Source of the DNA: Leptospirales bacterium
GTDB taxonomy: Bacteria; Spirochaetota; Leptospiria; Turneriellales; JAOUFE01
Assembly (NCBI GenBank): GCA_040326155.1
Contig: JBEQLE010000075.1
Span: 1-19,643, forward strand
DNA: 19,643 nucleotides
Direction: 5' to 3'
Position numbers and translations under genes: made by a program. The first letter of the stretch is position 1. Each line of letters begins with the position of its first letter. Positions 9,222-19,606 of the stretch are shown piece after piece. The notes under the pieces are model-generated. The model did no database searches. It was not told the origin of the DNA and saw only the letters and a list, made by a program, of their open reading frames with translations.

Positions 9222-9848
9222 ATGGGTGAAGGGTATTTTCTAGAATTCTTCGAGTCGATTCCACGTGAGGGATACTGGCTTTTGATTTTTTTTTCTACGT
9301 TCATGGAAAATATTTTCCCTCCTTTTCCCGGTGATACGATTGTCGCTTTTACCGGATATTTATGGGGAGCAGGCCTTGTTAGTTTTCAAACTCTTGCTAT
9401 AAGTATTCTAGCGGGTAACTTAGCTGGCGCTCTGCTGATGTACTTTTTTGGCCTTGAAGTGATGAATTTCTTTTTAAAACATTTAAAAAGTGAGCGTCTT
9501 AAAAAGCTTTTTGACAAGGAGCATCTCGATAAAACCCACAAATGGTTCAACAAATATGGGTTTTTTGCTGTTATGTTTTCTCGCTTTTCAGCCGGCATAC
9601 GGTTTTTTGTTTCTATTGTGGCCGGTATGGCCAATATGCATGTTTCTGTTTTCATTCTGGCCTTTTTACTGGCAACGGGCCTATGGAACTCTCTATTAAT
9701 CTATGGCGGTTATGTTATGGGAGAGAACTGGCGTGAAATTCTACAGTATATTCAAGTTTATAGCGCAGTTTTTGCCGTTGTTTTAATTGCTTTTGCTTAT
9801 TACTTTTACCATCGCTTTAAAAAATCAAAAATTGACTCTAACGAGTAA
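9222..9848 (+). CDS. DedA family membrane protein (208 aa)
   Basis: ENIFPPFPGD, WFNKYG, FSRFSAGIRFFVSIVAGMANM motifs. Confidence 0.93.
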   Translation: MGEGYFLEFFESIPREGYWLLIFFSTFMENIFPPFPGDTIVAFTGYLWGAGLVSFQTLAISILAGNLAGALLMYFFGLEVMNFFLKHLKSERLKKLFDKEHLDKTHKWFNKYGFFAVMFSRFSAGIRFFVSIVAGMANMHVSVFILAFLLATGLWNSLLIYGGYVMGENWREILQYIQVYSAVFAVVLIAFAYYFYHRFKKSKIDSNE

Positions 9849-9871
9849 TTCGAATCGCGCCTTTTTTTGCT

Positions 9872-9898
9872 TCAGCTACTTTCATTTTTGTCCGATAA
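9872..9898 (+). promoter_or_regulatory. Putative sigma-28 (FliA) promoter of fliS
   Basis: TCAG(9872-9875)-N15-TCCGATAA(9891-9898) versus consensus TAAA-N15-GCCGATAA, about 25 nt upstream of a late flagellar gene. Confidence 0.55.
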
Positions 9899-9922
9899 TA
9901 AGAGTAATAAGCAGGAGCAAAT

Positions 9923-10351
9923 ATGCAAAGCGCACATAATGAATATCATATGAACCAAATAGAAACCGCTGACCCGAAGCAGTTAGTGATAATGCTTTAT
10001 GATGGAGCCGGAAGGTTTCTCGAAAGAGCCGCAGCTGAAATTGATAATTTTAAAAAATACGATAATGTAAATACGAATATTCTGAAAGCCCAGGATATTA
10101 TAACTGAACTCATGTTATCACTCGATATGGAACAAGGCGGGGAGATCGCCGACAATTTGCTAAACTTATACGCCTTCATGAAAAAAGAACTTCTCGAAGC
10201 GAATATGAAAAAAGAGAAAGGTGGCATCGTCCAGGTAATTAAAATGCTAGACGATTTGAAAGAGGCATGGGTAAAAATGGAACCGGGCTCTGAAGTCAAA
10301 AAAGAGGCTCCACCAGAAAGACCGAAAGGCGGGTTTGTCGCCCAGGGTTAA
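9923..10351 (+). CDS. fliS: Flagellin export chaperone FliS
   Basis: IETADPKQLVIMLYDGA, KAQDIITELMLSLDMEQGGEIADNLLNLY, LKEAW; RBS AGGAG. Confidence 0.97.
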   Translation: MQSAHNEYHMNQIETADPKQLVIMLYDGAGRFLERAAAEIDNFKKYDNVNTNILKAQDIITELMLSLDMEQGGEIADNLLNLYAFMKKELLEANMKKEKGGIVQVIKMLDDLKEAWVKMEPGSEVKKEAPPERPKGGFVAQG

Positions 10352-10353
10352 GA

Positions 10354-10665
10354 TTGGAATTATCCTCTGTTTTTTACCGTCTTATTGCCTATAAAAATTT
10401 TCAACTCAACGCAATAAATAAAATTATCAGTGGAAAAGATTTTTCTACCGAGAGATTCTTGAAGTCCGTTCAACGACTGCATAACTATGCAGTGTCTCTG
10501 GAGTTGCGTGCGCCCATTTCACCTACCGAAAAAACTCTTCAAAGTTATTATCAGTTCCTTGAACTAAAACTAGATCGTAAAATGGTTGCTCTAAAAGACG
10601 ATTATAAAAGCCATCTCGACACTGAGATCATTAAACGTTCCTTGTCGGTCAAGAAAATTAGATAA
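10354..10665 (+). CDS. Hypothetical helical protein (103 aa) coupled to fliS
   Basis: TTG start 2 nt after the fliS stop; helical, charged composition; no recognisable motif. Confidence 0.55.
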   Translation: MELSSVFYRLIAYKNFQLNAINKIISGKDFSTERFLKSVQRLHNYAVSLELRAPISPTEKTLQSYYQFLELKLDRKMVALKDDYKSHLDTEIIKRSLSVKKIR

Positions 10666-10895
10666 AAGTATCTGTAAATTTTACCGAATAATTATTTGCT
10701 TTCTTTATGTTTCACCCGGTAGATGCTATATGAAAACCGGACAAAACTTAACAAGTCTTTATTGGTATGTATGTCTTCTAATTGCGACAAAATATCCATT
10801 TTACAATAAAAAAGTCCTCTAATTTTGTTACATTATTTAAAATTTATTATTAGTACTTTACTTGTTTCAAAGGAAAGTATATATGTCTCTAAACG

Positions 10896-12437
10896 ATGGT
10901 TGATTCAATTACAGCTCAAATGAGGCATGCGGATAATTCTGCTGATATATCGTCAGGTGATTTATTATATACGAAACCTGACTCAGAGCAGTTATATTAT
11001 CTTCAAAATATACATTTGCTGGAATTGCAAAATTCCGTTGTTGCTCTTAAAATAAATAATTCGGCTTTTTTTGAACTTGAAAAAGAAGCTCTTGCCCTTC
11101 TTAATGCTTTTTATTCGGAACAAGAAAAATACGACACATTGCAATCTAAACTGATTCCGATAACACGTAATTTTATTATAAAGTTTGTACATCAAAAAAG
11201 CGGTATTTCTTACGAAAATTTAAATGAAACTTTCGATGAACTTGTCTCTTTGGGGTTAATTGGCGAAAACCCTGAAAAAGTTTTGGCAACCCCGCAACTT
11301 CTGGAGCCTGCCGTATCGAACCTGGTTTTAATTTTAGCAGGCAAATGTAATCTGGCATGCAGTTATTGTTACGCTGATAAAGGATCTTTTCAGGGACCGG
11401 AGTCTTTGATGGAAGAAAAAACAGCATACAAGGCGGTGGATTTTTTAATTGAAAATTCCGATGTCGAACCATCTATCCATATTAATTTTTTTGGTGGTGA
11501 GCCGCTATTGAACTTTCCGGTTTTGAAATCTACGGTTGCTTATGCTAAAAAAAGAGCTGCTGTTGCAAAAAAAATGATATCTTTTTCTGTAACTACAAAT
11601 TCCACTTTGCTGAATGAAAAAGCCGGTGAATTTTTTTCTCGCGAAAATATTTCCATTTCTACAAGTCTTGATGGATCTGCCACTTTGCATGATGCAAATA
11701 GAAAATATCCATCCGGAAAAGGTTCATTTGAAGACGCAAAAAATAATATTCTATCCTGTAAAAAAAATTACCCCGAATTAAAAATTGGCGTTCGGGTAAC
11801 ACTGACGAAAGAAGAGATCTCTTTAAAGCGCCGGTTATTCGATCTTCTTGAACTTGGTTTTTCCGAAGTAGGGTTTTCCCCTGTTTCAAGCGCTGACCCG
11901 AACATAGCATTTTCTGATTTGGAGTACGCTGAATTTACCAGTCAATTTGAAGAGTTAATTACTCTTTATATAGAAACGGCACTGCAAGATCAACTTCTGC
12001 CCGTATCGAATATTTCAAATTTTTTAAGTTATTTGCATGATGGAATCGTAAAGAATTTTCCATGTGGCGGAGCTATTGGACTAATGGGAGTAAACCCGGG
12101 TGGCGAGCTGTTTTTATGCCATCGTCTAATTGGCCAATCCGAATATGCGTTGGGTAACATTTATGATGGTATCGACCGGACAAAACAAGCGCAGATCATA
12201 GAGAGTACCGCAGTGGGTAATAAACAAGGTTGTACTAATTGCTGGGCAAAACATTTTTGCGGTGGTGGGTGTCATTATGAAGTTCATTTGCAAAATGACA
12301 ATATTTCGGCAACCCCTTTGGAAAATTGCAAATGGTTTCAATCATGGGCTAAAACTTTAATCGAAGCATATGTCATTATTATGAATAAAAATCCGCAATT
12401 TATCGATCGTTATATAGATCAAAAATCATTATGTTAA
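10896..12437 (+). CDS. qhpD: Radical SAM/SPASM peptide maturase, QhpD-like (513 aa)
   Basis: CNLACSYC, FFGGEPL, SPASM cysteines FPCGGAIG..LCHR..CTNCWAKHFCGGGCHYE..C, QhpD-like tail W..IEAYVIIMNKNPQFI, RRE-like N-terminus (IHLLEL..INNSAFFEL); adjacent to a QhpC-like precursor. Confidence 0.85.
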   Translation: MVDSITAQMRHADNSADISSGDLLYTKPDSEQLYYLQNIHLLELQNSVVALKINNSAFFELEKEALALLNAFYSEQEKYDTLQSKLIPITRNFIIKFVHQKSGISYENLNETFDELVSLGLIGENPEKVLATPQLLEPAVSNLVLILAGKCNLACSYCYADKGSFQGPESLMEEKTAYKAVDFLIENSDVEPSIHINFFGGEPLLNFPVLKSTVAYAKKRAAVAKKMISFSVTTNSTLLNEKAGEFFSRENISISTSLDGSATLHDANRKYPSGKGSFEDAKNNILSCKKNYPELKIGVRVTLTKEEISLKRRLFDLLELGFSEVGFSPVSSADPNIAFSDLEYAEFTSQFEELITLYIETALQDQLLPVSNISNFLSYLHDGIVKNFPCGGAIGLMGVNPGGELFLCHRLIGQSEYALGNIYDGIDRTKQAQIIESTAVGNKQGCTNCWAKHFCGGGCHYEVHLQNDNISATPLENCKWFQSWAKTLIEAYVIIMNKNPQFIDRYIDQKSLC

Positions 12438-12446
12438 GGAGTGTTT

Positions 12447-13169
12447 ATGGCACAGGAAGTAGCAACAGTTAAAATCTTTCCCTACGAGCAAACTTTACCA
12501 CCGGGTTCCAATTCGGTCGATGTAAATACGGACCCGATGTTTGGCGTTGCACGTATTGGAGATAAAAGACCAACCGGGTATAGAACAAGCATTACTCCGG
12601 CCGATACGTTTCCAAACCGGGCGCCCAGAATACCCTGCCAGTTTGTTTTAGTCGGTTTCGATTCAACCGGGGCAAAAATCAGCGGCGGCGACATACTAGA
12701 CGGTATACTTTTTAATGGCGCAAAACTGCCCAACGGTAACACCGTGAAGGTTGACTGGAGCGCTACAATAAGCAATGGCAAATGGGATAGTTATATTATT
12801 CCAGATATGCGACAACCAGCCGTAGACCTTACCGAGTCGTGCGTCGCCGGAGACCCCCCAACTTCGGCGCTTGGATACTTTATTGATGATACAGGACAAA
12901 TGATGCCAGGCAATGATGGCATACTCCAGTTTCTAACAACTGGTCCCACGCCACAATATCCTGAAGCGTTGAGAAGTTCAGATTTTGGATACACGAATGA
13001 TTTTAACACTGATCGTTGTGGAGACGGTTTTGTAAAGGCCGATTATTCCGAAATAGTTACAGGCGGGGGCAGTTCAAATTCGAAACCCCAGGTTCAAATT
13101 AAATCGGTACTCACTCAGCCGGACTGGGCTGTAACTTTATACCAACCCAAAGGGTGGAATCTGCCGTAA
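12447..13169 (+). CDS. Stand-alone protein resembling domain IV of quinohemoprotein amine dehydrogenase alpha subunit (240 aa, no heme motif, no signal peptide)
   Basis: Colinear motifs VKIFP..VARIG..PRIPCQF..G.D..VDWS..IDDTGQMMPG..GPTP..NTDRCGDGFVKA..VLTQPDW..LP match the remembered QhpA C-terminal pattern (VKVxP..ARIG..PK...F..W.V..DG.FxPG..GPNP..TNNxGNL.V.A..IVTVQRW..P). AAGGAG at 12436-12441 favours ATG 12447. Confidence 0.7.
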   Translation: MAQEVATVKIFPYEQTLPPGSNSVDVNTDPMFGVARIGDKRPTGYRTSITPADTFPNRAPRIPCQFVLVGFDSTGAKISGGDILDGILFNGAKLPNGNTVKVDWSATISNGKWDSYIIPDMRQPAVDLTESCVAGDPPTSALGYFIDDTGQMMPGNDGILQFLTTGPTPQYPEALRSSDFGYTNDFNTDRCGDGFVKADYSEIVTGGGSSNSKPQVQIKSVLTQPDWAVTLYQPKGWNLP

Positions 13170-13201
13170 ATTATTCAGAAGATTTGTGATAGGAGAAATG
13201 T

Positions 13202-14815
13202 ATGAAACAAGTTAAGCCATTAAATAAAAAAGCTTTGGCTATTGCCGAAGAAGATACACCCGACGTGTTCGCCTGCGCGCCAATACCTAAACCGGATTGC
13301 ACCAGTAATTATGCACCCGGCATTGAAGTGTCGTCTGCCACATCGTCTACCGACCAGAATGCCAGTACAAAAGGGTTATGTTCTCCCTTTCTTAGAGATA
13401 CTATGATTTGTAGCTGTAGTTACTGGCCTTCACAAGATCCCGATTTAACAGTGCAAGAGACCGCTTCAAAATGGAGAAATGGTATGGGTCACGGGCAAGG
13501 TCATGGCGTTAACTCGCAAGAGCTTCGATTTGTCTACCCTACCGATCCTAAAAGCGATCCGAATCGCGCTTATGGCAACGGCAAAGATTCCTGGGATAAA
13601 AATGTTCCTTCGGATATAAACGAAATTATGATTAAAGATAATTGGGCCGATACTGGGTCCGTACCGACTTCGGGAAATACATGGACCAGTCCCGATATCT
13701 GGTTGCGCTACAACAACGAACCGGAAAGTAATTTTCCTGATCCGAATCTTAATTATCATCAGGGTAATCCGATTGTAAATAGAAATAATTATTTGTATGC
13801 GAGGGTACGTAATACCGGGCAGCATGTTATTGATCAGGTTTATGTAAAATTTTATGCAGGTCTTACAAGTACCAACCCTAGCGGTATTTTAGTCGGGCAT
13901 GGAATGGTTCGAGAGATGGCCGCTCAAAGTGTTGCCGTTGTAAAATCGATAAAACCCTGGGCTCCAAATGTCACGGGACATGGGTGTATACGGGTTATTA
14001 TCGATTCTACTCAAGACCCGGTAAAATTGCTGGGCTCGCCGCCAAATTTTAATTCTTACAATCAATTACTGGGACCCCAGTTTCAAGATGTATCCGTCGC
14101 TTATGATAATAATGTCGCACAACTTAACCTGAGCATTATTACGGTCATTCCGGGATGGGCGGGGATACCTTTTGATTTTGTGATCATGCCGAAAATTCCC
14201 CCGATTATCGATGATATTGAATGGCCTCCCCGTCCTTTGCCCGAGCCTGATCCGAATCCTGAGTGGCATAAAATAATTCTGGAAAGGCCACTGGCTCTAT
14301 CGCGACTAAAACTTGAAACAGCCCCGGTTGCAAAACATTTGCAAGCTTATAAACGGCCGTTCAAATTTTCCATATCGAAATTGTTTGAAGTACTTTACCA
14401 GTTGTTCTTGCCGATTCTAAGTTGGGTTTCGCCATCCTTGACGAACCATCGCAAGCGATTGATCACTTACATGCCTACGGAAAAAGACAGACCGGTAAAG
14501 CATAGTTTAATGATTAACCTGGACCGAGTTGCTCATGATGATCAGTATATGGATCACTCCTTTGTGATTAAACAAGCTTTCAAAGGAAAAACATTGGGTG
14601 GTATAACGGTAAGAATGAATGTTACTCATCCCAGTCTTGTCAGGTATATCGCAGACACCGATACGAAGGTCGCTCACTTTTTTAAATGCCCTGAGATTAA
14701 GCAAATACCGGATAATCGTAAAAGAGGTTTTGATGATCCGAATGAGGCGTTGGCTGCCGGGTATGCCGTGCATGATCGTTGCGATATTTTGTTGGCAAGA
14801 CGTAAGGGTGAATAG
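13202..14815 (+). CDS. QhpC-like (CTQ/ranthipeptide precursor) N-terminal domain fused to an Ig/CARDB-like domain, Pro-rich linker and C-terminal Ada-type metal-binding domain (537 aa)
   Basis: Leader MKQVKPLNKKA; core CTSNYAPGIEV, LCSPFLRD, CSCSYWPSQDPD, ELRFVYP; then WTSPDIWLR..YLYARVRNTG..GHGC..DNNVAQLN; terminal YIADTDTKVAHFFKC..EALAAGYAVHDRC; RBS AGGAG. Confidence 0.82.
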   Translation: MKQVKPLNKKALAIAEEDTPDVFACAPIPKPDCTSNYAPGIEVSSATSSTDQNASTKGLCSPFLRDTMICSCSYWPSQDPDLTVQETASKWRNGMGHGQGHGVNSQELRFVYPTDPKSDPNRAYGNGKDSWDKNVPSDINEIMIKDNWADTGSVPTSGNTWTSPDIWLRYNNEPESNFPDPNLNYHQGNPIVNRNNYLYARVRNTGQHVIDQVYVKFYAGLTSTNPSGILVGHGMVREMAAQSVAVVKSIKPWAPNVTGHGCIRVIIDSTQDPVKLLGSPPNFNSYNQLLGPQFQDVSVAYDNNVAQLNLSIITVIPGWAGIPFDFVIMPKIPPIIDDIEWPPRPLPEPDPNPEWHKIILERPLALSRLKLETAPVAKHLQAYKRPFKFSISKLFEVLYQLFLPILSWVSPSLTNHRKRLITYMPTEKDRPVKHSLMINLDRVAHDDQYMDHSFVIKQAFKGKTLGGITVRMNVTHPSLVRYIADTDTKVAHFFKCPEIKQIPDNRKRGFDDPNEALAAGYAVHDRCDILLARRKGE

Positions 14816-14836: not shown

Positions 14837-15691
14837 ATGAGAGTCTATTTTGGTTCGGAGTTCTGTGAATATTTAATTCCGTCTAAACGGGAATTGATAA
14901 ATGCTCATGAAAAAAGCCTGAGCGATGGATTTGACTTTACGTTTGTTACCCCTCCTGTAACCGATACGGGAGTTGAAAAACTACAGGTTTTGTTTGAATA
15001 CCTTGATTCTGTTGAAATGGAAATTGAGGTAGTAGCAAATGATTGGGGTGTAGTGACTTTGGCTTCCCGGTTCGAATTTTTGCAGCCTGTTATGGGACGA
15101 TTGTTAAACAAAATGTTGCGCGAACCGCGATTTAACACGATGTATAAAAACTCCGAGGTGCCAAAGGCGCCTCTTAAGATATTTCAAAATTCAGGAATAA
15201 GCAGTAATTTCATGGAAATTATAAAGAGATATCGTATAAAGAGAATCGAACTTGATAATCTTTACCAGGGGTTCGGCGAAGATTTGAATTTACATGGACT
15301 TGACGCATCGGTTTATTTACCTTATGGGTACATCGCATCAGGTCGAATGTGTTATTATGCAGCTGTTGGACGCCCTACCGAAGTTCGGTTTTTATACGGG
15401 CGTGAGTGCCAAAAACAATGTATTGGTAATAGTGCAACAATGGTATCGGAGAAGACCGCAGATTTAAATAACATTATACAAAAAGGTAACACGGTATTTT
15501 ACAAACAGGATAAAACAATGATCGACAAAGCTCTTCAATGGATAAAAAACAATCGTGCAAGAGTTGTTATTTTTGAAGACCCCATAGAGTTGCCTGCAAA
15601 AGCATTTGAAAATATCGAAGATGCTGAAGCTTGTCTCAGCAGGACATTCGAAAATCAGAGAAATATATTTAGCAAGTCATATGAAAATTAA
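14837..15691 (+). CDS. Divergent U32-family-like protein (284 aa), probable partner subunit
   Basis: RVYFGSEFCE, FTFVTP, EVVANDWG, GRLLNK, RIELDN, YGYIASGRMC..ECQKQC..KGNTVF: U32/UbiV-like barrel pattern with candidate Fe-S cysteines; overlaps the next U32 gene. Confidence 0.65.
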   Translation: MRVYFGSEFCEYLIPSKRELINAHEKSLSDGFDFTFVTPPVTDTGVEKLQVLFEYLDSVEMEIEVVANDWGVVTLASRFEFLQPVMGRLLNKMLREPRFNTMYKNSEVPKAPLKIFQNSGISSNFMEIIKRYRIKRIELDNLYQGFGEDLNLHGLDASVYLPYGYIASGRMCYYAAVGRPTEVRFLYGRECQKQCIGNSATMVSEKTADLNNIIQKGNTVFYKQDKTMIDKALQWIKNNRARVVIFEDPIELPAKAFENIEDAEACLSRTFENQRNIFSKSYEN

Positions 15692-16688
15692 CACGCCTGT
15701 TAACCATCCTGATGAAGTCGCCGCATTGGTAGAAGCCGGGTCTGATGAATTTTACTGTGGTTATAACCCGGAAGATTGGTCTGAAAAATTCAGTTTCGCG
15801 GTATGGATGAACCGTCGAGGTCCCGGTCCGGCAAATATCAGTAAATTTGAAGACCTGCAATCCATAATTGAACAGGCTGCACAGGCAAGACGAAAAGTCA
15901 TGGTGACCATGAATGCGCCGACGTATACCGACGAACAAAGAGATTTTTTAAAAAATTTAGTAGACTCTATTTTATCGATTGGCGGCGCCGGATTTATTTT
16001 ATCGGACATTGCTCTAATGCAATGGGTGGCGACAACACACCCCCAGGCACAAGTTATCGTTAGTTCTTTGGCTGCTGTTACAAATTGCGCCTCTGCACGG
16101 TTTTATCAAGACTCCGGAGCCTCCAGAATTATACTGCCGCGCCAATTGTCGATTTCTGAAATATTGCATATGAAGAAAAACCTGCCCGGACTCGAACTTG
16201 AAGCATTTGTCATGAATGACGGTTGCGTATATGAGGAGAGCTTTTGCAGCACCACTCATGCGATTGGGGCTTTTTGTCAGGACAAATGGAAATACACCAA
16301 TCACTGCTCGAATGAAAGTGGAACAAATAAAATTTCGGAAAAGTTGTTTCAAGATGCCATTGACGACTATCAAAAAAGAATCTGGTATTTAAGTAACTGT
16401 GGGAACACCCAGGCAGAAAACGGGGCACCCAACGGGCCATGCGGCTTATGCGCGATGTATGACTTTCATGAGGCGGGCGTGGAGTATCTGAAAGTTGTTG
16501 GCAGGGAAGCCACAACACACCGTAAAATAAAAAGCGTAGAAATGACTCACTCCGTATTACAAAAAATACAGATCGGGGCGGACAAGATGCAAACCTCAGA
16601 GTTTGCAAAAAGTTTACGTAATTTTGGCGAGGGGTGTCAAAATGGTTATATGTGCTATTATCGTGAACCAGCGACAGCGATGTCTTGA
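15681..16688 (+). CDS. U32 family Fe-S protein (335 aa), probable O2-independent hydroxylase
   Basis: EAGSDEFYCG, RIILPRQLSISEI, LEAFVMNDGCVYEESFC (C-x6-C), FCQ, CGLC, LKVVGRE; ATG 15681 overlaps the upstream stop (15689-15691). Confidence 0.88.
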   Translation: MKINTPVNHPDEVAALVEAGSDEFYCGYNPEDWSEKFSFAVWMNRRGPGPANISKFEDLQSIIEQAAQARRKVMVTMNAPTYTDEQRDFLKNLVDSILSIGGAGFILSDIALMQWVATTHPQAQVIVSSLAAVTNCASARFYQDSGASRIILPRQLSISEILHMKKNLPGLELEAFVMNDGCVYEESFCSTTHAIGAFCQDKWKYTNHCSNESGTNKISEKLFQDAIDDYQKRIWYLSNCGNTQAENGAPNGPCGLCAMYDFHEAGVEYLKVVGREATTHRKIKSVEMTHSVLQKIQIGADKMQTSEFAKSLRNFGEGCQNGYMCYYREPATAMS

Positions 16689-17510: not shown

Positions 17511-18962
17511 TTATCGTGTAACAATTTCACCAACTAATTCAGTATCGTATAGAATATTCACCATTTGGCCTTTTTGCAGGTTGGTCGATACTGGTAACCT
17601 GCATTTTAGATAGTTCTCGGTGGTGACCTGTGCGGTTTCATTGTTGTTTGTTTCGATGATGGCGCGGTAAACATTTCCAGCGGTTTTTTGTATATAATTT
17701 TGCGCAGAAATATCAGCGGCTGTTTTCAGCCTTTTCACTCGTTCTCGAATAATACTGCCATGAACCATTTGCAGTTCACCATTATCTATTTTACGATCGA
17801 GAGAAGTCTGGCTTCTTCGCGACCATGGGAAAATATGGATATTAGCAAAGTTTGCATTTTTTACAAAAGCCAGAGTTTGCAAAAAGTCATCTTCTGTTTC
17901 ACCGGGAAAGCCAACGATCAAGTCGGTTCCAATGTGAACGTCAGGGCGAATCTTTCTCAGGGCTTCAAATTTTTGCATGACCAACTCTGGGTTGTATTTT
18001 CGGTTCATGAGTTTTAAGATTCGTTGCGAAGCGCTTTGCAGGGGAATGTGAAAAAACGGGGCAATTTTTTTATGGCCTGCTAGTTCGATAATTTCGGGAG
18101 TCAGAGATTCAGGTTCAAGTGAACTGATTCGATAATAGTAATGACCTGGCAGGGTGACCAGTTTGTGCAGTAACCATGAAAAATTTTCAACTTTGTCGGC
18201 CGCGCCAGTGGTTTTATAACGCCCGATATTAATACCGGTTAAAATAATTTCCGCAAAACCTGTTTTTCCCAGCGCTTTAACTTCCGATTCAATCGATCTA
18301 AAATTGCGTGAAATACCTTTACCGCGAGCCATAGGAATTTTACAATAGCTGCATCTTTTGTCGCACCCATCTTGAATTTTCAGATAAGCCCTTGAAAATT
18401 TTTCAAGAGATTGTGGATAACTTTTAAAAATGGTTTCCTGATTGCGGTTTGCCTTTGCAGGTTCCGACTCTGTCGTCGTAGGTATCGCAGATGGGTCAAT
18501 TTCATTGGTTTCTATAGCGGCAATTAGATCGGGAATGGAGTTTTTTTCTGCGTTAGAAACGACAAGGTAAACACCGTCCATGTTTTCAATTTCTTGTCGG
18601 TCCGTTGTAGCGTAACAACCTGTTACAATAATTTTCGCATGTGGGTTCAATTTTTGAACTCGACGAATGGCTCCCCGGTTTTTAACATCGGCGCGGTTGG
18701 TCACAGTGCAGGTATTAATTACCACATATGCGGCTTCTTCAATGGAGCCGGAGGTTTCAAAAGAGGTTAAAGTTGAATTTGAAAGAGATGAGTTGTTTTC
18801 CATATTGAGTGTTTCTAACCGATTGACACGGCATCCAAAATGGAAATAATATATTTTTTTAGTCTGGTTTATGTTCAAGGGGGCAGTTTTGGAGCCCGAG
18901 ACGGGTTCAGGTTCGAGACTGGGTCTGGGGTTTGGTTGCCGGGCGCCTGAAATCGGGCTCAT
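17511..18962 (-). CDS. mtaB: tRNA t6A37 methylthiotransferase MtaB (483 aa)
   Basis: UPF0004 cysteines GCRVN, NTCTVT, TGCYA; radical SAM KIQDGCDKRCSYCKIP; IVGFPGET; HIFPWSRR; TENY. Confidence 0.93.
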   Translation of the reverse strand: MSPISGARQPNPRPSLEPEPVSGSKTAPLNINQTKKIYYFHFGCRVNRLETLNMENNSSLSNSTLTSFETSGSIEEAAYVVINTCTVTNRADVKNRGAIRRVQKLNPHAKIIVTGCYATTDRQEIENMDGVYLVVSNAEKNSIPDLIAAIETNEIDPSAIPTTTESEPAKANRNQETIFKSYPQSLEKFSRAYLKIQDGCDKRCSYCKIPMARGKGISRNFRSIESEVKALGKTGFAEIILTGINIGRYKTTGAADKVENFSWLLHKLVTLPGHYYYRISSLEPESLTPEIIELAGHKKIAPFFHIPLQSASQRILKLMNRKYNPELVMQKFEALRKIRPDVHIGTDLIVGFPGETEDDFLQTLAFVKNANFANIHIFPWSRRSQTSLDRKIDNGELQMVHGSIIRERVKRLKTAADISAQNYIQKTAGNVYRAIIETNNNETAQVTTENYLKCRLPVSTNLQKGQMVNILYDTELVGEIVTR

Positions 18963-18964
18963 AA

Positions 18965-19606
18965 TTATTTGAGATTATCGATGTTTGTTTGAATGAGTTT
19001 TTTGAAACTGGGAACCAGGTTTGGATTGTTTAACGCGATATTAAAATGCTCGATCGCTTTCTTTTTTAGTTCATCGGCTTTCTCAGGAGATTTCGTTTTT
19101 TCGCTTTTATACCACTGCTGGTATATATAACCAAGCAGGTTATGCAAATACGGACTCTGCTTTCGAAATGAAAGCCCCCACAGCATAGAAAACTCAGCTT
19201 TTTCATAATCGGCCAGCGAAAGATGCGCGCGAGCTTCTAATACAACCGCTTCGAGTTTATCTTTAACACCTGTCTCTTTCTGATCAAAAACAGATTTGGC
19301 TTTCTCAGCGTATTCCAGGGCTTTTTTTGCGTTGTTTTCTAAAAGGTTAATGCGCGATAAAATATTGTATAATTTTGATGGAATAGACACTTTATGGTCT
19401 GTCAAATTTTGAATTCCACGAAGGGCAATTTTGCGAGCGGTACCAAGATATCTACGATGAATTTGCATTAAGGCATAATCGATGTAAGGCCCTGGTTTTG
19501 AGGGGTCCGTTTTTATGGTTCTTTCAAAATGGACAATTGCCGAATCGAAATTTCCCTGTTTCCAATGGTTGTGCGCAGCCAGGTAGCGAAGTTTAAAGTT
19601 TTTCAT
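18965..19606 (-). CDS. Tetratricopeptide repeat protein (213 aa)
   Basis: TPR-like helices (GNFDSAIVHFERTIKTDP, KALEYAEKA, YLHNLLGYIY, KAIEHFNIAL); stop 2 nt before the mtaB start. Confidence 0.8.
   Translation of the reverse strand: MKNFKLRYLAAHNHWKQGNFDSAIVHFERTIKTDPSKPGPYIDYALMQIHRRYLGTARKIALRGIQNLTDHKVSIPSKLYNILSRINLLENNAKKALEYAEKAKSVFDQKETGVKDKLEAVVLEARAHLSLADYEKAEFSMLWGLSFRKQSPYLHNLLGYIYQQWYKSEKTKSPEKADELKKKAIEHFNIALNNPNLVPSFKKLIQTNIDNLK

Follow-up and report, generated by a model that had tools for sequence, protein, structure and literature searches.

Why should a reading frame that begins like QhpC, the normally separate, small cofactor-bearing γ subunit of quinohemoprotein amine dehydrogenase (QHNDH), run on for several hundred residues past the point at which QhpC ends? 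The question is raised by a gene on contig JBEQLE010000075.1 of a Leptospirales bacterium, a stretch of 19,643 nt that is referred to in its entirety as 'the window'. The gene (13202-14815, + strand) is a single, uninterrupted open reading frame (ORF) of 537 aa that starts with ATG, contains no internal stop and is preceded by AGGAG located 8 nt 5' of the ATG. Its QhpC-like end, LRFVYP, closes at residue 113 (nt 13540; residue numbers are those of the 537-aa fusion protein throughout), and 424 residues come after. The fusion of this small subunit to a tail of about 420 residues points to an undescribed single-chain version of a quinone enzyme.

The original prediction, which had been made from the sequence alone, has largely held. 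The frame does stay open for the approximately 420 residues that it had given; the motifs that it had quoted (IKDNWADTG, WTSPDIWLR, NYLYARVRNTG, PW, GHGCIRVIIDS, DNNVAQLN and PKIPPIIDDIEWPPRPLPEPDPNPEW) all occur in the translation; the length of about 110 aa ascribed to canonical QhpC agrees with the 110 aa encoded in the Paracoccus operon; and the proposed succession of an Ig/CARDB-like domain, a Pro-rich linker and another β domain is borne out by an AlphaFold2 (AF2) model, by structure comparison with VIA-align and by the CARDB domain detected in relatives. Its range, 13622-14640 (residues 141-480), comprises both β domains and the linker but omits a C-terminal His/Cys tail of 57 residues (14642-14812).

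Conservation of the fusion and its QhpC-like head

A word-indexed search of 5.8 billion proteins yielded six full-length relatives (P0002-P0007, one of them truncated at the N-terminus) exhibiting 40-48% identity at 86-99% coverage. Exhaustive searching of 1.84 billion cluster representatives with HMMER returned 208 proteins at E ≤0.001, among which are three more distant full-length members (P0011-P0013; ~30% identity). In all, nine further proteins from other assemblies (29-50% identity) share the whole architecture end to end, with the order of parts from the leader to the C-terminal His/Cys motif being identical in all ten sequences including the window protein, and with lengths ranging from 446 aa (the truncated member) to 557 aa. 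At the junction, residues LRFVY, G127, D129 and W131 are conserved across the relatives, the latter three forming invariant alignment columns. Furthermore, the DNA reads through the junction at two other loci, one obtained from a scan of genome contigs (L001, on a contig of a metagenome-assembled Nitrospinota genome) and one from a scan of metagenome contigs (L005, the ORF of which is P0013). The fusion is real and conserved, and an assembly artefact is excluded for the family. The full fusion turned up once among 401 sampled genomes belonging to the window's phylum and once among 120 from Nitrospinota.

It had been proposed in the original prediction to look for C-termini swapped behind a conserved QhpC head, and for relatives that encode the two parts separately. 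The reverse of the former was seen, since the C-terminus is kept in all ten family members, and, as to the latter, nine other proteins carry the fusion. A small free-standing subunit of ~80 mature residues, as is characteristic of QhpC, is found neither in the window protein nor in any relative, and relatives of 30-294 aa were absent from 476 candidates in a search of limited sensitivity. No description of a fusion of this kind was found by full-text searching of the literature on QhpC/QhpD/QhpG, on U32 proteins or on the QHNDH γ subunit, and the terms 'fused', 'fusion' and 'U32' do not occur in the accessible part of the paper on QhpG (PMC7876137).

The head resembles QhpC in its leader as well as in its core. 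The leader aligns, through MKxxKPxNxKA, with its counterpart in Paracoccus QhpC, and cleavage would be expected at the canonical point after residue 26, because Cys33 aligns to Cys7 of the mature γ subunit in structure 1jmx_G. The profile of the fusion family matches this structure (E 0.0085), and in the resulting alignment C33, E42, C60, D66, C70, W75 and D81 correspond to Cys7, Glu16, Cys27, Asp33, Cys37, Trp43 and Asp49. These residues, together with P76 and P80, are kept in nine of nine aligned members. C72, the counterpart of Cys41, and D79 are present in six of the nine and were jointly lost in P0011-P0013, which form one clade, so that this loss was counted as a single evolutionary event. 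Two of these distant relatives pass the cut-off of 25 bits for PF08992 (P0011, 39.7; P0013, 36.3), with P0012 falling under it (22.2).

The tail and its recurrence in other proteins

The AF2 model, built on an alignment of 50 rows, has a predicted template modelling (pTM) score of 0.77; an earlier model from seven sequences was poor (mean predicted local distance difference test (pLDDT) score 46), and its Foldseek list was uninformative. Block-mean pLDDT values amount to 90-97 for residues 141-270, 64-72 for the loop 271-290, 87-96 for 291-330 and 51-55 for the linker (331-350), and range from 74 to 97 for residues 351-537 (second sandwich, 74-94; His/Cys tail, 92-97). In the model, the tail consists of two rigidly packed, Ig-like β-sandwiches followed by an end that resembles an Ada-type zinc ribbon. 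The second sandwich contains four invariant residues (Q458, G466, G467 and T469), and its helical insertion is absent from P0004 and P0006.

Comparison with 48,161 chains using VIA-align matched residues 140-310 to the CARDB structure 3idu (Z 8.1, root-mean-square deviation 2.6, 100 residues, 22% identity), a Z-score in a range that common folds reach too, and likewise to Ig domains of glycoside hydrolase family 2 and to transglutaminase barrels (Z 8.2-8.7). Residues 309-480 matched the sandwiches of major sperm protein, pilins and fimbrial chaperones with Z ~7, a value at which common folds score likewise. Foldseek returned generic tandem-Ig proteins only, at low template modelling (TM) scores, and QHNDH α chains were not among the 50 matches listed by Foldseek or VIA-align. 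At the sequence level, the domain homologous to the first sandwich passes the CARDB cut-off in 11 of 28 scanned relatives. Conserved Asp/Asn loops in this sandwich resemble calcium sites.

For the zinc-ribbon-like end, H492, C496 and C527 occur in nine of nine members and H524 in seven of nine. The family profile matched small proteins and a phospholipase D (PLD)-like protein, all of which end in an Ada-type motif, and the His/Cys tail aligned with an 87-aa protein that is positive for PF02805 (Ada_Zn_binding) with an hhalign probability of 82.6% (E 9.7e-6). Pfam searches with isolated C-terminal pieces gave no match, including PF02805, at E up to 10. The putative metal ligands are His, Cys, His, Cys in the fusion versus His, Cys, Cys, Cys in other carriers of the tail. 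PADLOC returned nothing for the tail or for the orphan proteins of the cluster, and a tblastn search against plasmids returned a single weak match.

A scan of 159 fetched proteins with the family hidden Markov model recovered the tail in full (from profile position ~133 to 495 or further) in 14 proteins outside the family, and the two sandwiches without the ribbon in 30 more. Pfam was run on all of the 14 except P0079 and P0085. The heads of these twelve belong to the tyrosinases (two), to peptidase families M28 (two), S8 (two), M36 (two, one of them under the cut-off) and C13 (one); the remaining three have no head family, two of them being little more than the tail. In these carriers, either the tail stops within 1-18 residues of the C-terminus or a helix-hairpin-helix motif comes after it. 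Across families the tail is constant and the head variable, and among members of the QhpC-like family no swap of the C-terminus occurs.

A fifteenth carrier is a 1393-aa protein from another genome of the spirochaete phylum (L045 772-4953; G258:C7), in which Ig-like repeats precede the tail (two sandwiches and His/Cys motif), a helix-hairpin-helix and a Lys-rich end of ~190 residues composed of Lys/Pro/Ala-rich, histone-H1-like repeats; this protein suggests that the tail is associated with nucleic acid in some carriers. The window's own genome also encodes ORFs of 1183 and 1404 aa with a CARDB-like first sandwich only (G000:C109 18681-19295 and 29851-30282; L011, L013).

As a proxy for signal peptides we took the highest 11-residue Kyte-Doolittle mean found in residues 1-45 and set the threshold at 2.4. 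None of the 14 ribbon-bearing carriers has a signal-peptide-like N-terminus (maximum 2.25), versus 14 of the 30 ribbon-less proteins, and the 1393-aa protein likewise lacks one. The fusion protein itself begins with a QhpC-type leader and has no signal peptide, and there is no transporter gene among the six genes of its cluster (Table 1). Hence, we hold with moderate confidence that the fusion protein is cytoplasmic. The three-part tail represents an uncatalogued module on apparently intracellular proteases and tyrosinases. Tyrosinases and several peptidase families are often held latent by extra domains, and by analogy the tail may serve to shield or to regulate.

Gene cluster and search for QHNDH partners

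The fusion gene is one of six co-oriented genes that overlap or are spaced by 3-32 nt, and the same set is present in the same order in the window, L001 and L005.

Table 1. Parts of the fusion gene and genes of the surrounding cluster, in window coordinates.
Feature	Positions	Strand	Remarks
QhpD-like radical SAM/SPASM thioether maturase, 513 aa	10896..12437	+	TIGR03906 best family
242-aa orphan protein	12441..13169	+	likely start ATG 12447
Fusion: leader	13202..13279	+	residues 1-26, boundary inferred
Fusion: QhpC-like Cys/Trp core	13280..13540	+	residues 27-113
Fusion: connector	13541..13612	+	residues 114-137; family-conserved G127, D129, W131; low AF2 confidence
Fusion: β-sandwich 1, CARDB-like	13613..14191	+	residues 138-330
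Fusion: Pro-rich linker	14192..14257	+	residues 331-352; length variable, sequence unconserved
Fusion: β-sandwich 2, helical insertion 377-416	14258..14641	+	residues 353-480
Fusion: C-terminal His/Cys zinc-ribbon-like tail	14642..14815	+	residues 481-537 plus stop
UbiV-like partner of U32 protein, 284 aa	14837..15691	+	Cys pattern, structure-cluster lead
U32-family protein, UbiU/TrhP-like, 360 aa as listed	15606..16688	+	PF01136; likely start ATG 15681
QhpE-like subtilisin-type leader protease, 249 aa	16698..17447	+	NF049966 best family

Two of the neighbours have counterparts in QHNDH maturation. The radical S-adenosylmethionine (SAM) enzyme scores 346.5 bits with TIGR03906 (quino_hemo_SAM; cut-off 453) over profile positions 2-466 of 467 and is 33% identical to the annotated Paracoccus PeaB/QhpD, its second-best family being the PapB-type ranthipeptide maturases. 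The protease scores 144.3 bits with NF049966 (QH_SP; cut-off 165). Members of the QhpD-like and QhpE-like families likewise flank the fusion in L001, and homologues occupy the same positions in L005.

The 242-aa protein has no family in Pfam, NCBIfam, PADLOC or the PDB, its matches in the Atlas being at chance level. It is 50% identical to the equivalently placed gene product of L001, a copy is present in L005 too, and its family counts 11 members among the 5.8 billion proteins, three of which are encoded on contigs bearing fusion genes. This co-inheritance makes it probable that the protein is a second subunit or partner of the fusion protein. A complex prediction for the two gave a score of 0.00, with the fold of the 242-aa protein being itself uncertain. 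Its database copies are 240 aa long, and its start is likely the ATG listed in Table 1 rather than the GTG at 12441.

The U32 protein matches PF01136 with 117 bits. UbiU and TrhP are its best NCBIfam matches, both far under their cut-offs (UbiU, 84 bits versus 440), and C207-X6-C214, C224, C279 and C282 are invariant. For its start, the listed TTG would overlap the preceding gene by 86 nt, and conservation makes the downstream ATG likelier. In the adjoining 284-aa protein, C10, C172, C191 and C195 are invariant and form the pattern CXnCX18CX3C; for UbiV, the accessible text of PMC6747719 gives the [4Fe-4S] ligands as CXnCX12CX3C, with the first Cys far upstream. The nearest Atlas structure cluster of the 284-aa protein is 'Peptidase U32' (TM 0.77 over 239 residues), which we regard as a lead only. 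Its gene adjoins a U32 gene in five of five loci, and its family was found in one of 120 Nitrospinota genomes, namely the fusion-bearing one, and in four of the 401 from the window's phylum. Two additional loci of the pair are L042 7343-9551 in G133, where a tetratricopeptide repeat (TPR) protein is adjacent, and L043 6924-8938 in G289, within an acyl carrier protein (ACP)/ketosynthase/desaturase cluster. The 284-aa family, which has no catalogue entry, has the appearance of a UbiV-like partner that serves U32 enzymes in general.

The Paracoccus operon that was used for comparison comprises QhpG, A, D, C, B, E, F and R. Within the window's genome, which is 94.7% complete, neither PF09098 nor the Paracoccus QhpA query gave a match; the QhpB query gave just 56 residues (E 0.0018); and the QhpG query gave none, the best score with the QhpG model NF049967 being 27 bits (cut-off 240) and confined to the dinucleotide-binding motif. 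No ABC transporter that could correspond to QhpF is encoded among the window ORFs around the cluster, a genome-wide search for QhpF not having been made. The fusion protein contains no haem motif.

Several further features of the locus may be mentioned. The G+C content is 0.43-0.47 in 12001-14500 versus 0.34-0.37 in 10001-12500, and, taken with the patchy distribution, this step is in keeping with a horizontally acquired cluster. At the Nitrospinota locus, a gene for a glycyl-radical-enzyme activase lies directly upstream of the cluster (L001 1548-2447), which hints at an anaerobic host. The flanks of the cluster in the window are ordinary: upstream (9222-10665) a DedA/UptA-like protein, FliS and a 103-aa ORF without family, and downstream on the opposite strand (17511-19606) MtaB and a TPR protein. 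Scans for promoters (20 versus 18.8) and terminators (7 versus 6.8) remained at the level of shuffled sequence.

Proposed maturation, competing explanations and relation to known systems

The reading that we favour, and to which we assign about an even chance, is that of a self-contained, cytoplasmic single-chain protein, composed of two parts unrelated to each other, in which a thioether-knotted, probably quinone-bearing head resides on a generic two-sandwich/zinc-ribbon tail, with the 242-aa protein as its partner and the U32 pair possibly acting as hydroxylase. Our confidence is high for the architecture of the fusion protein, and low to moderate where the quinone and the U32 step are concerned. 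The leader of the head (residues 1-113, a QhpC-type substrate) would be recognised by the QhpD-like radical SAM enzyme, which would introduce thioethers between Cys33 and Glu42, between Cys60 and Asp66, and from one further Cys to an Asp. The QhpE-like protease would then cut the leader off, and Trp75, with Cys70 as its neighbour, would give rise to a cofactor of the cysteine tryptophylquinone (CTQ) type. The tail (138-537) would be non-catalytic and stay attached, serving as scaffold, shield or localiser for the knotted head and thus standing in for the large subunits by which QhpC is held in the known enzyme, and the co-inherited 242-aa orphan would be a likely second subunit.

As to hydroxylation, the role of QhpG is the dihydroxylation of the CTQ tryptophan, according to the accessible part of PMC7876137. 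Since no QhpG flavoprotein was found here, we infer that the UbiU/UbiV-like U32 iron-sulfur pair is a candidate substitute, that is, a hydroxylase which would not need O2. In the portions of the literature available, UbiU-UbiV is described as a U32 iron-sulfur heterodimer for O2-independent ubiquinone hydroxylation (PMC6747719; PMC10990095), and U32 proteins more generally as proposed O2-independent, prephenate-dependent hydroxylases (PMC10990095).

Several observations weigh against this reading. The window protein itself remains under the cut-offs of both families that recognise the γ subunit (QH_gamma NF037958, 29.6 bits, E 4.9e-7, cut-off 50; PF08992, 20.7 bits, cut-off 25), the sub-cut-off matches being supported by the relatives and by the fold, and it likewise scores only 17.2-18.9 bits with CARDB PF07705 (cut-off 22.7). 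The Cys-Trp spacing is one residue off that of QhpC (C70-x4-W75 and C72-x2-W75 versus C37-x5-W43 and C41-x1-W43), and the number of cross-links is not fixed, because the distant members are devoid of Cys72 and Asp79. The head was modelled poorly (block-mean pLDDT 32-59), so that there is no sign of its packing on the tail. The calcium-site-like loops of sandwich 1 could fit an extracellular life better, and the signal-peptide proxy is a crude hydropathy count applied to metagenomic sequences in which gene starts are possibly wrong. The 284-aa protein shows no sequence match to its U32 neighbour (hhalign), to NCBIfam or to the PDB, and is linked to the U32 family solely by the structure-cluster lead and the Cys pattern. 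Finally, we know of no U32 enzyme that acts on a protein.

Among the competing explanations, the one that fares best, though we consider it rather unlikely, is that the head is a thioether-knotted peptide without quinone, for example a cap resistant to proteases, a metal site or a plug without redox activity, and that the U32 pair acts elsewhere, for instance on a small molecule or a different residue. The QhpD-like and QhpE-like genes would suffice for knotting and leader removal, the tryptophan hydroxylase of the known CTQ pathway was not found in the genome, and pairs of 284-aa and U32 proteins also occur in unrelated contexts, such as the ACP/ketosynthase cluster of G289, so that the pair is not specific for QhpC-like substrates. 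However, Trp75-Pro76 and Cys70 are retained in nine of nine members, including the clade that lacks Cys72, which is hard to understand without a Cys-Trp cofactor, and the U32 pair lies within the cluster at three of three loci.

An improbable alternative is a precursor of the type giving rise to peptides that are ribosomally synthesised and then modified post-translationally (RiPPs), from which a knotted head of 85 residues would be released after FVYP and for which the tail would be a maturation carrier or recognition handle. The layout of leader, core, radical SAM enzyme and S8 protease is indeed RiPP-like, with the PapB-type maturases as second-best family of the radical SAM enzyme, and connector 114-137 is flexible in the model. 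Yet this connector holds the invariant G127, D129 and W131, the tail is a permanent enzyme domain in 14 other proteins, and the cluster contains neither an exporter nor a second protease, short free-standing relatives likewise not having been found in the search of limited sensitivity described above.

We regard as equally improbable that the sandwiches are evolutionary replacements of the QhpA Ig-like domains II-IV and of QhpB, which would make the fusion a compacted periplasmic amine dehydrogenase. Both subunits were not found in the genome and the tail is made of Ig-like sandwiches; QhpA domains II-IV are β-sandwiches too and wrap the γ subunit. On the other hand, homology to Paracoccus QhpA is not detectable (hhalign probability 0.17% for the fusion family), the same tail follows tyrosinase and peptidase heads and is therefore not built for QhpC, the ribbon version of the tail accompanies proteins without signal peptides, and the fusion protein lacks a haem motif and a signal peptide, just as the window ORFs lack a QhpF-type exporter. 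The original prediction had left two options, namely that the cargo replaces the α Ig-like domains or the β subunit, or that QhpC serves as head or 'warhead' on another protein; given that the tail is a portable module, the second fits better, and the first may apply as a functional analogy to the subunits that were not found, there being no sign of homology to QhpA. That two genes were joined by an assembly or gene-calling artefact, with a stop or frameshift lost near 13545-13620, has virtually no probability, since nine sequences from different assemblies cross the same junction with its marker residues conserved.

If one returns to the favoured quinone-bearing, single-chain reading, its relation to known systems can be outlined as follows. 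With QhpC of Paracoccus denitrificans and Pseudomonas putida (1jju_C, 1jmx_G), the head shares (i) a similar leader, (ii) four Cys, the Trp and the Asp/Glu partners, which align, and (iii) the adjacency of QhpD-like and QhpE-like genes as in the qhp operon, both being under their equivalog cut-offs. It differs by residing in a fusion of 537 aa rather than a protein of 110 aa, by its sub-cut-off scores and by the altered Cys-Trp spacing, and its cluster differs from the qhp operon in that it contains the U32 pair and the 242-aa orphan, with QhpA, QhpB and QhpG not found. LodA and GoxA are CTQ oxidases that consist of a single polypeptide and owe their maturation to the flavoproteins LodB and GoxB, as stated in the accessible part of PMC11951088. 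If CTQ is present, the fusion has in common with them a CTQ inside one large polypeptide without haem subunits. However, no sequence relation of LodA or GoxA to the tail was found, they have no thioether knots, and they depend on O2-requiring flavoproteins, none of which is encoded in the window. With UbiU-UbiV, the window pair shares the combination of a U32 protein with a smaller partner and a similar layout of four Cys, the first Cys of the small partner being far upstream (PMC6747719, accessible part); the presumed substrate is, in contrast, a protein side chain, and the small partner has no U32 sequence match. CARDB domains (PF07705; 3idu) and the C-terminal accessory sandwiches in secreted hydrolases appear to resemble sandwich 1 in fold and sequence motifs, whereas in the fusion this sandwich opens a fixed three-part tail with a zinc-ribbon-like end, a version that occurs on proteins without signal peptide. 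In the CrpA/CrpC system, too, what a SPASM radical SAM enzyme of the RiPP type furnishes with thioethers is a full-size protein rather than a peptide; its substrate is a Cys-rich archaeal protein, and the accessible portion of PMC13692751 describes no Trp cofactor, U32 pair or shared tail.

The fusion would be a naturally occurring case in which RiPP-type thioether maturation takes place on a protein of full size, cases of which are termed scarce in the accessible part of a 2026 paper (PMC13692751). If the favoured reading is true, a cross-linked quinone peptide is a transferable catalytic unit that operates while lacking every large subunit. With the U32 pair, a protein would for the first time be the substrate of a U32 enzyme, and this would provide a testable case of protein hydroxylation by U32 enzymes, the chemistry of which has yet to be reconstituted in vitro according to the part of PMC10990095 available. 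CTQ is known in three enzyme types (QHNDH, LodA and GoxA), all with O2-dependent flavoprotein maturation, as summarised in a 2025 review (PMC11951088, accessible part). It is tempting, if less likely than not to be right, to consider the fusion protein as a fourth kind of CTQ enzyme, namely a cytoplasmic single chain with a radical-SAM-knotted head, in which the Trp would be hydroxylated without O2 by the U32 pair and the tail would represent a module of general use for regulation or docking inside the cell, which latent tyrosinases and peptidases have as well.

A separate observation concerns a 762-aa Nitrospinota protein (L020 5428-8727; G414:C79, minus strand) containing LCAAIASFWPAVAPD, which matches the head profile with E 1.2e-6. 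The protein, for which Pfam, NCBIfam and the PDB gave no match and after which a 332-aa flavoprotein is encoded (best families QhpG, GoxB and LodB), may be another unrecognised Cys-Trp quinone protein.

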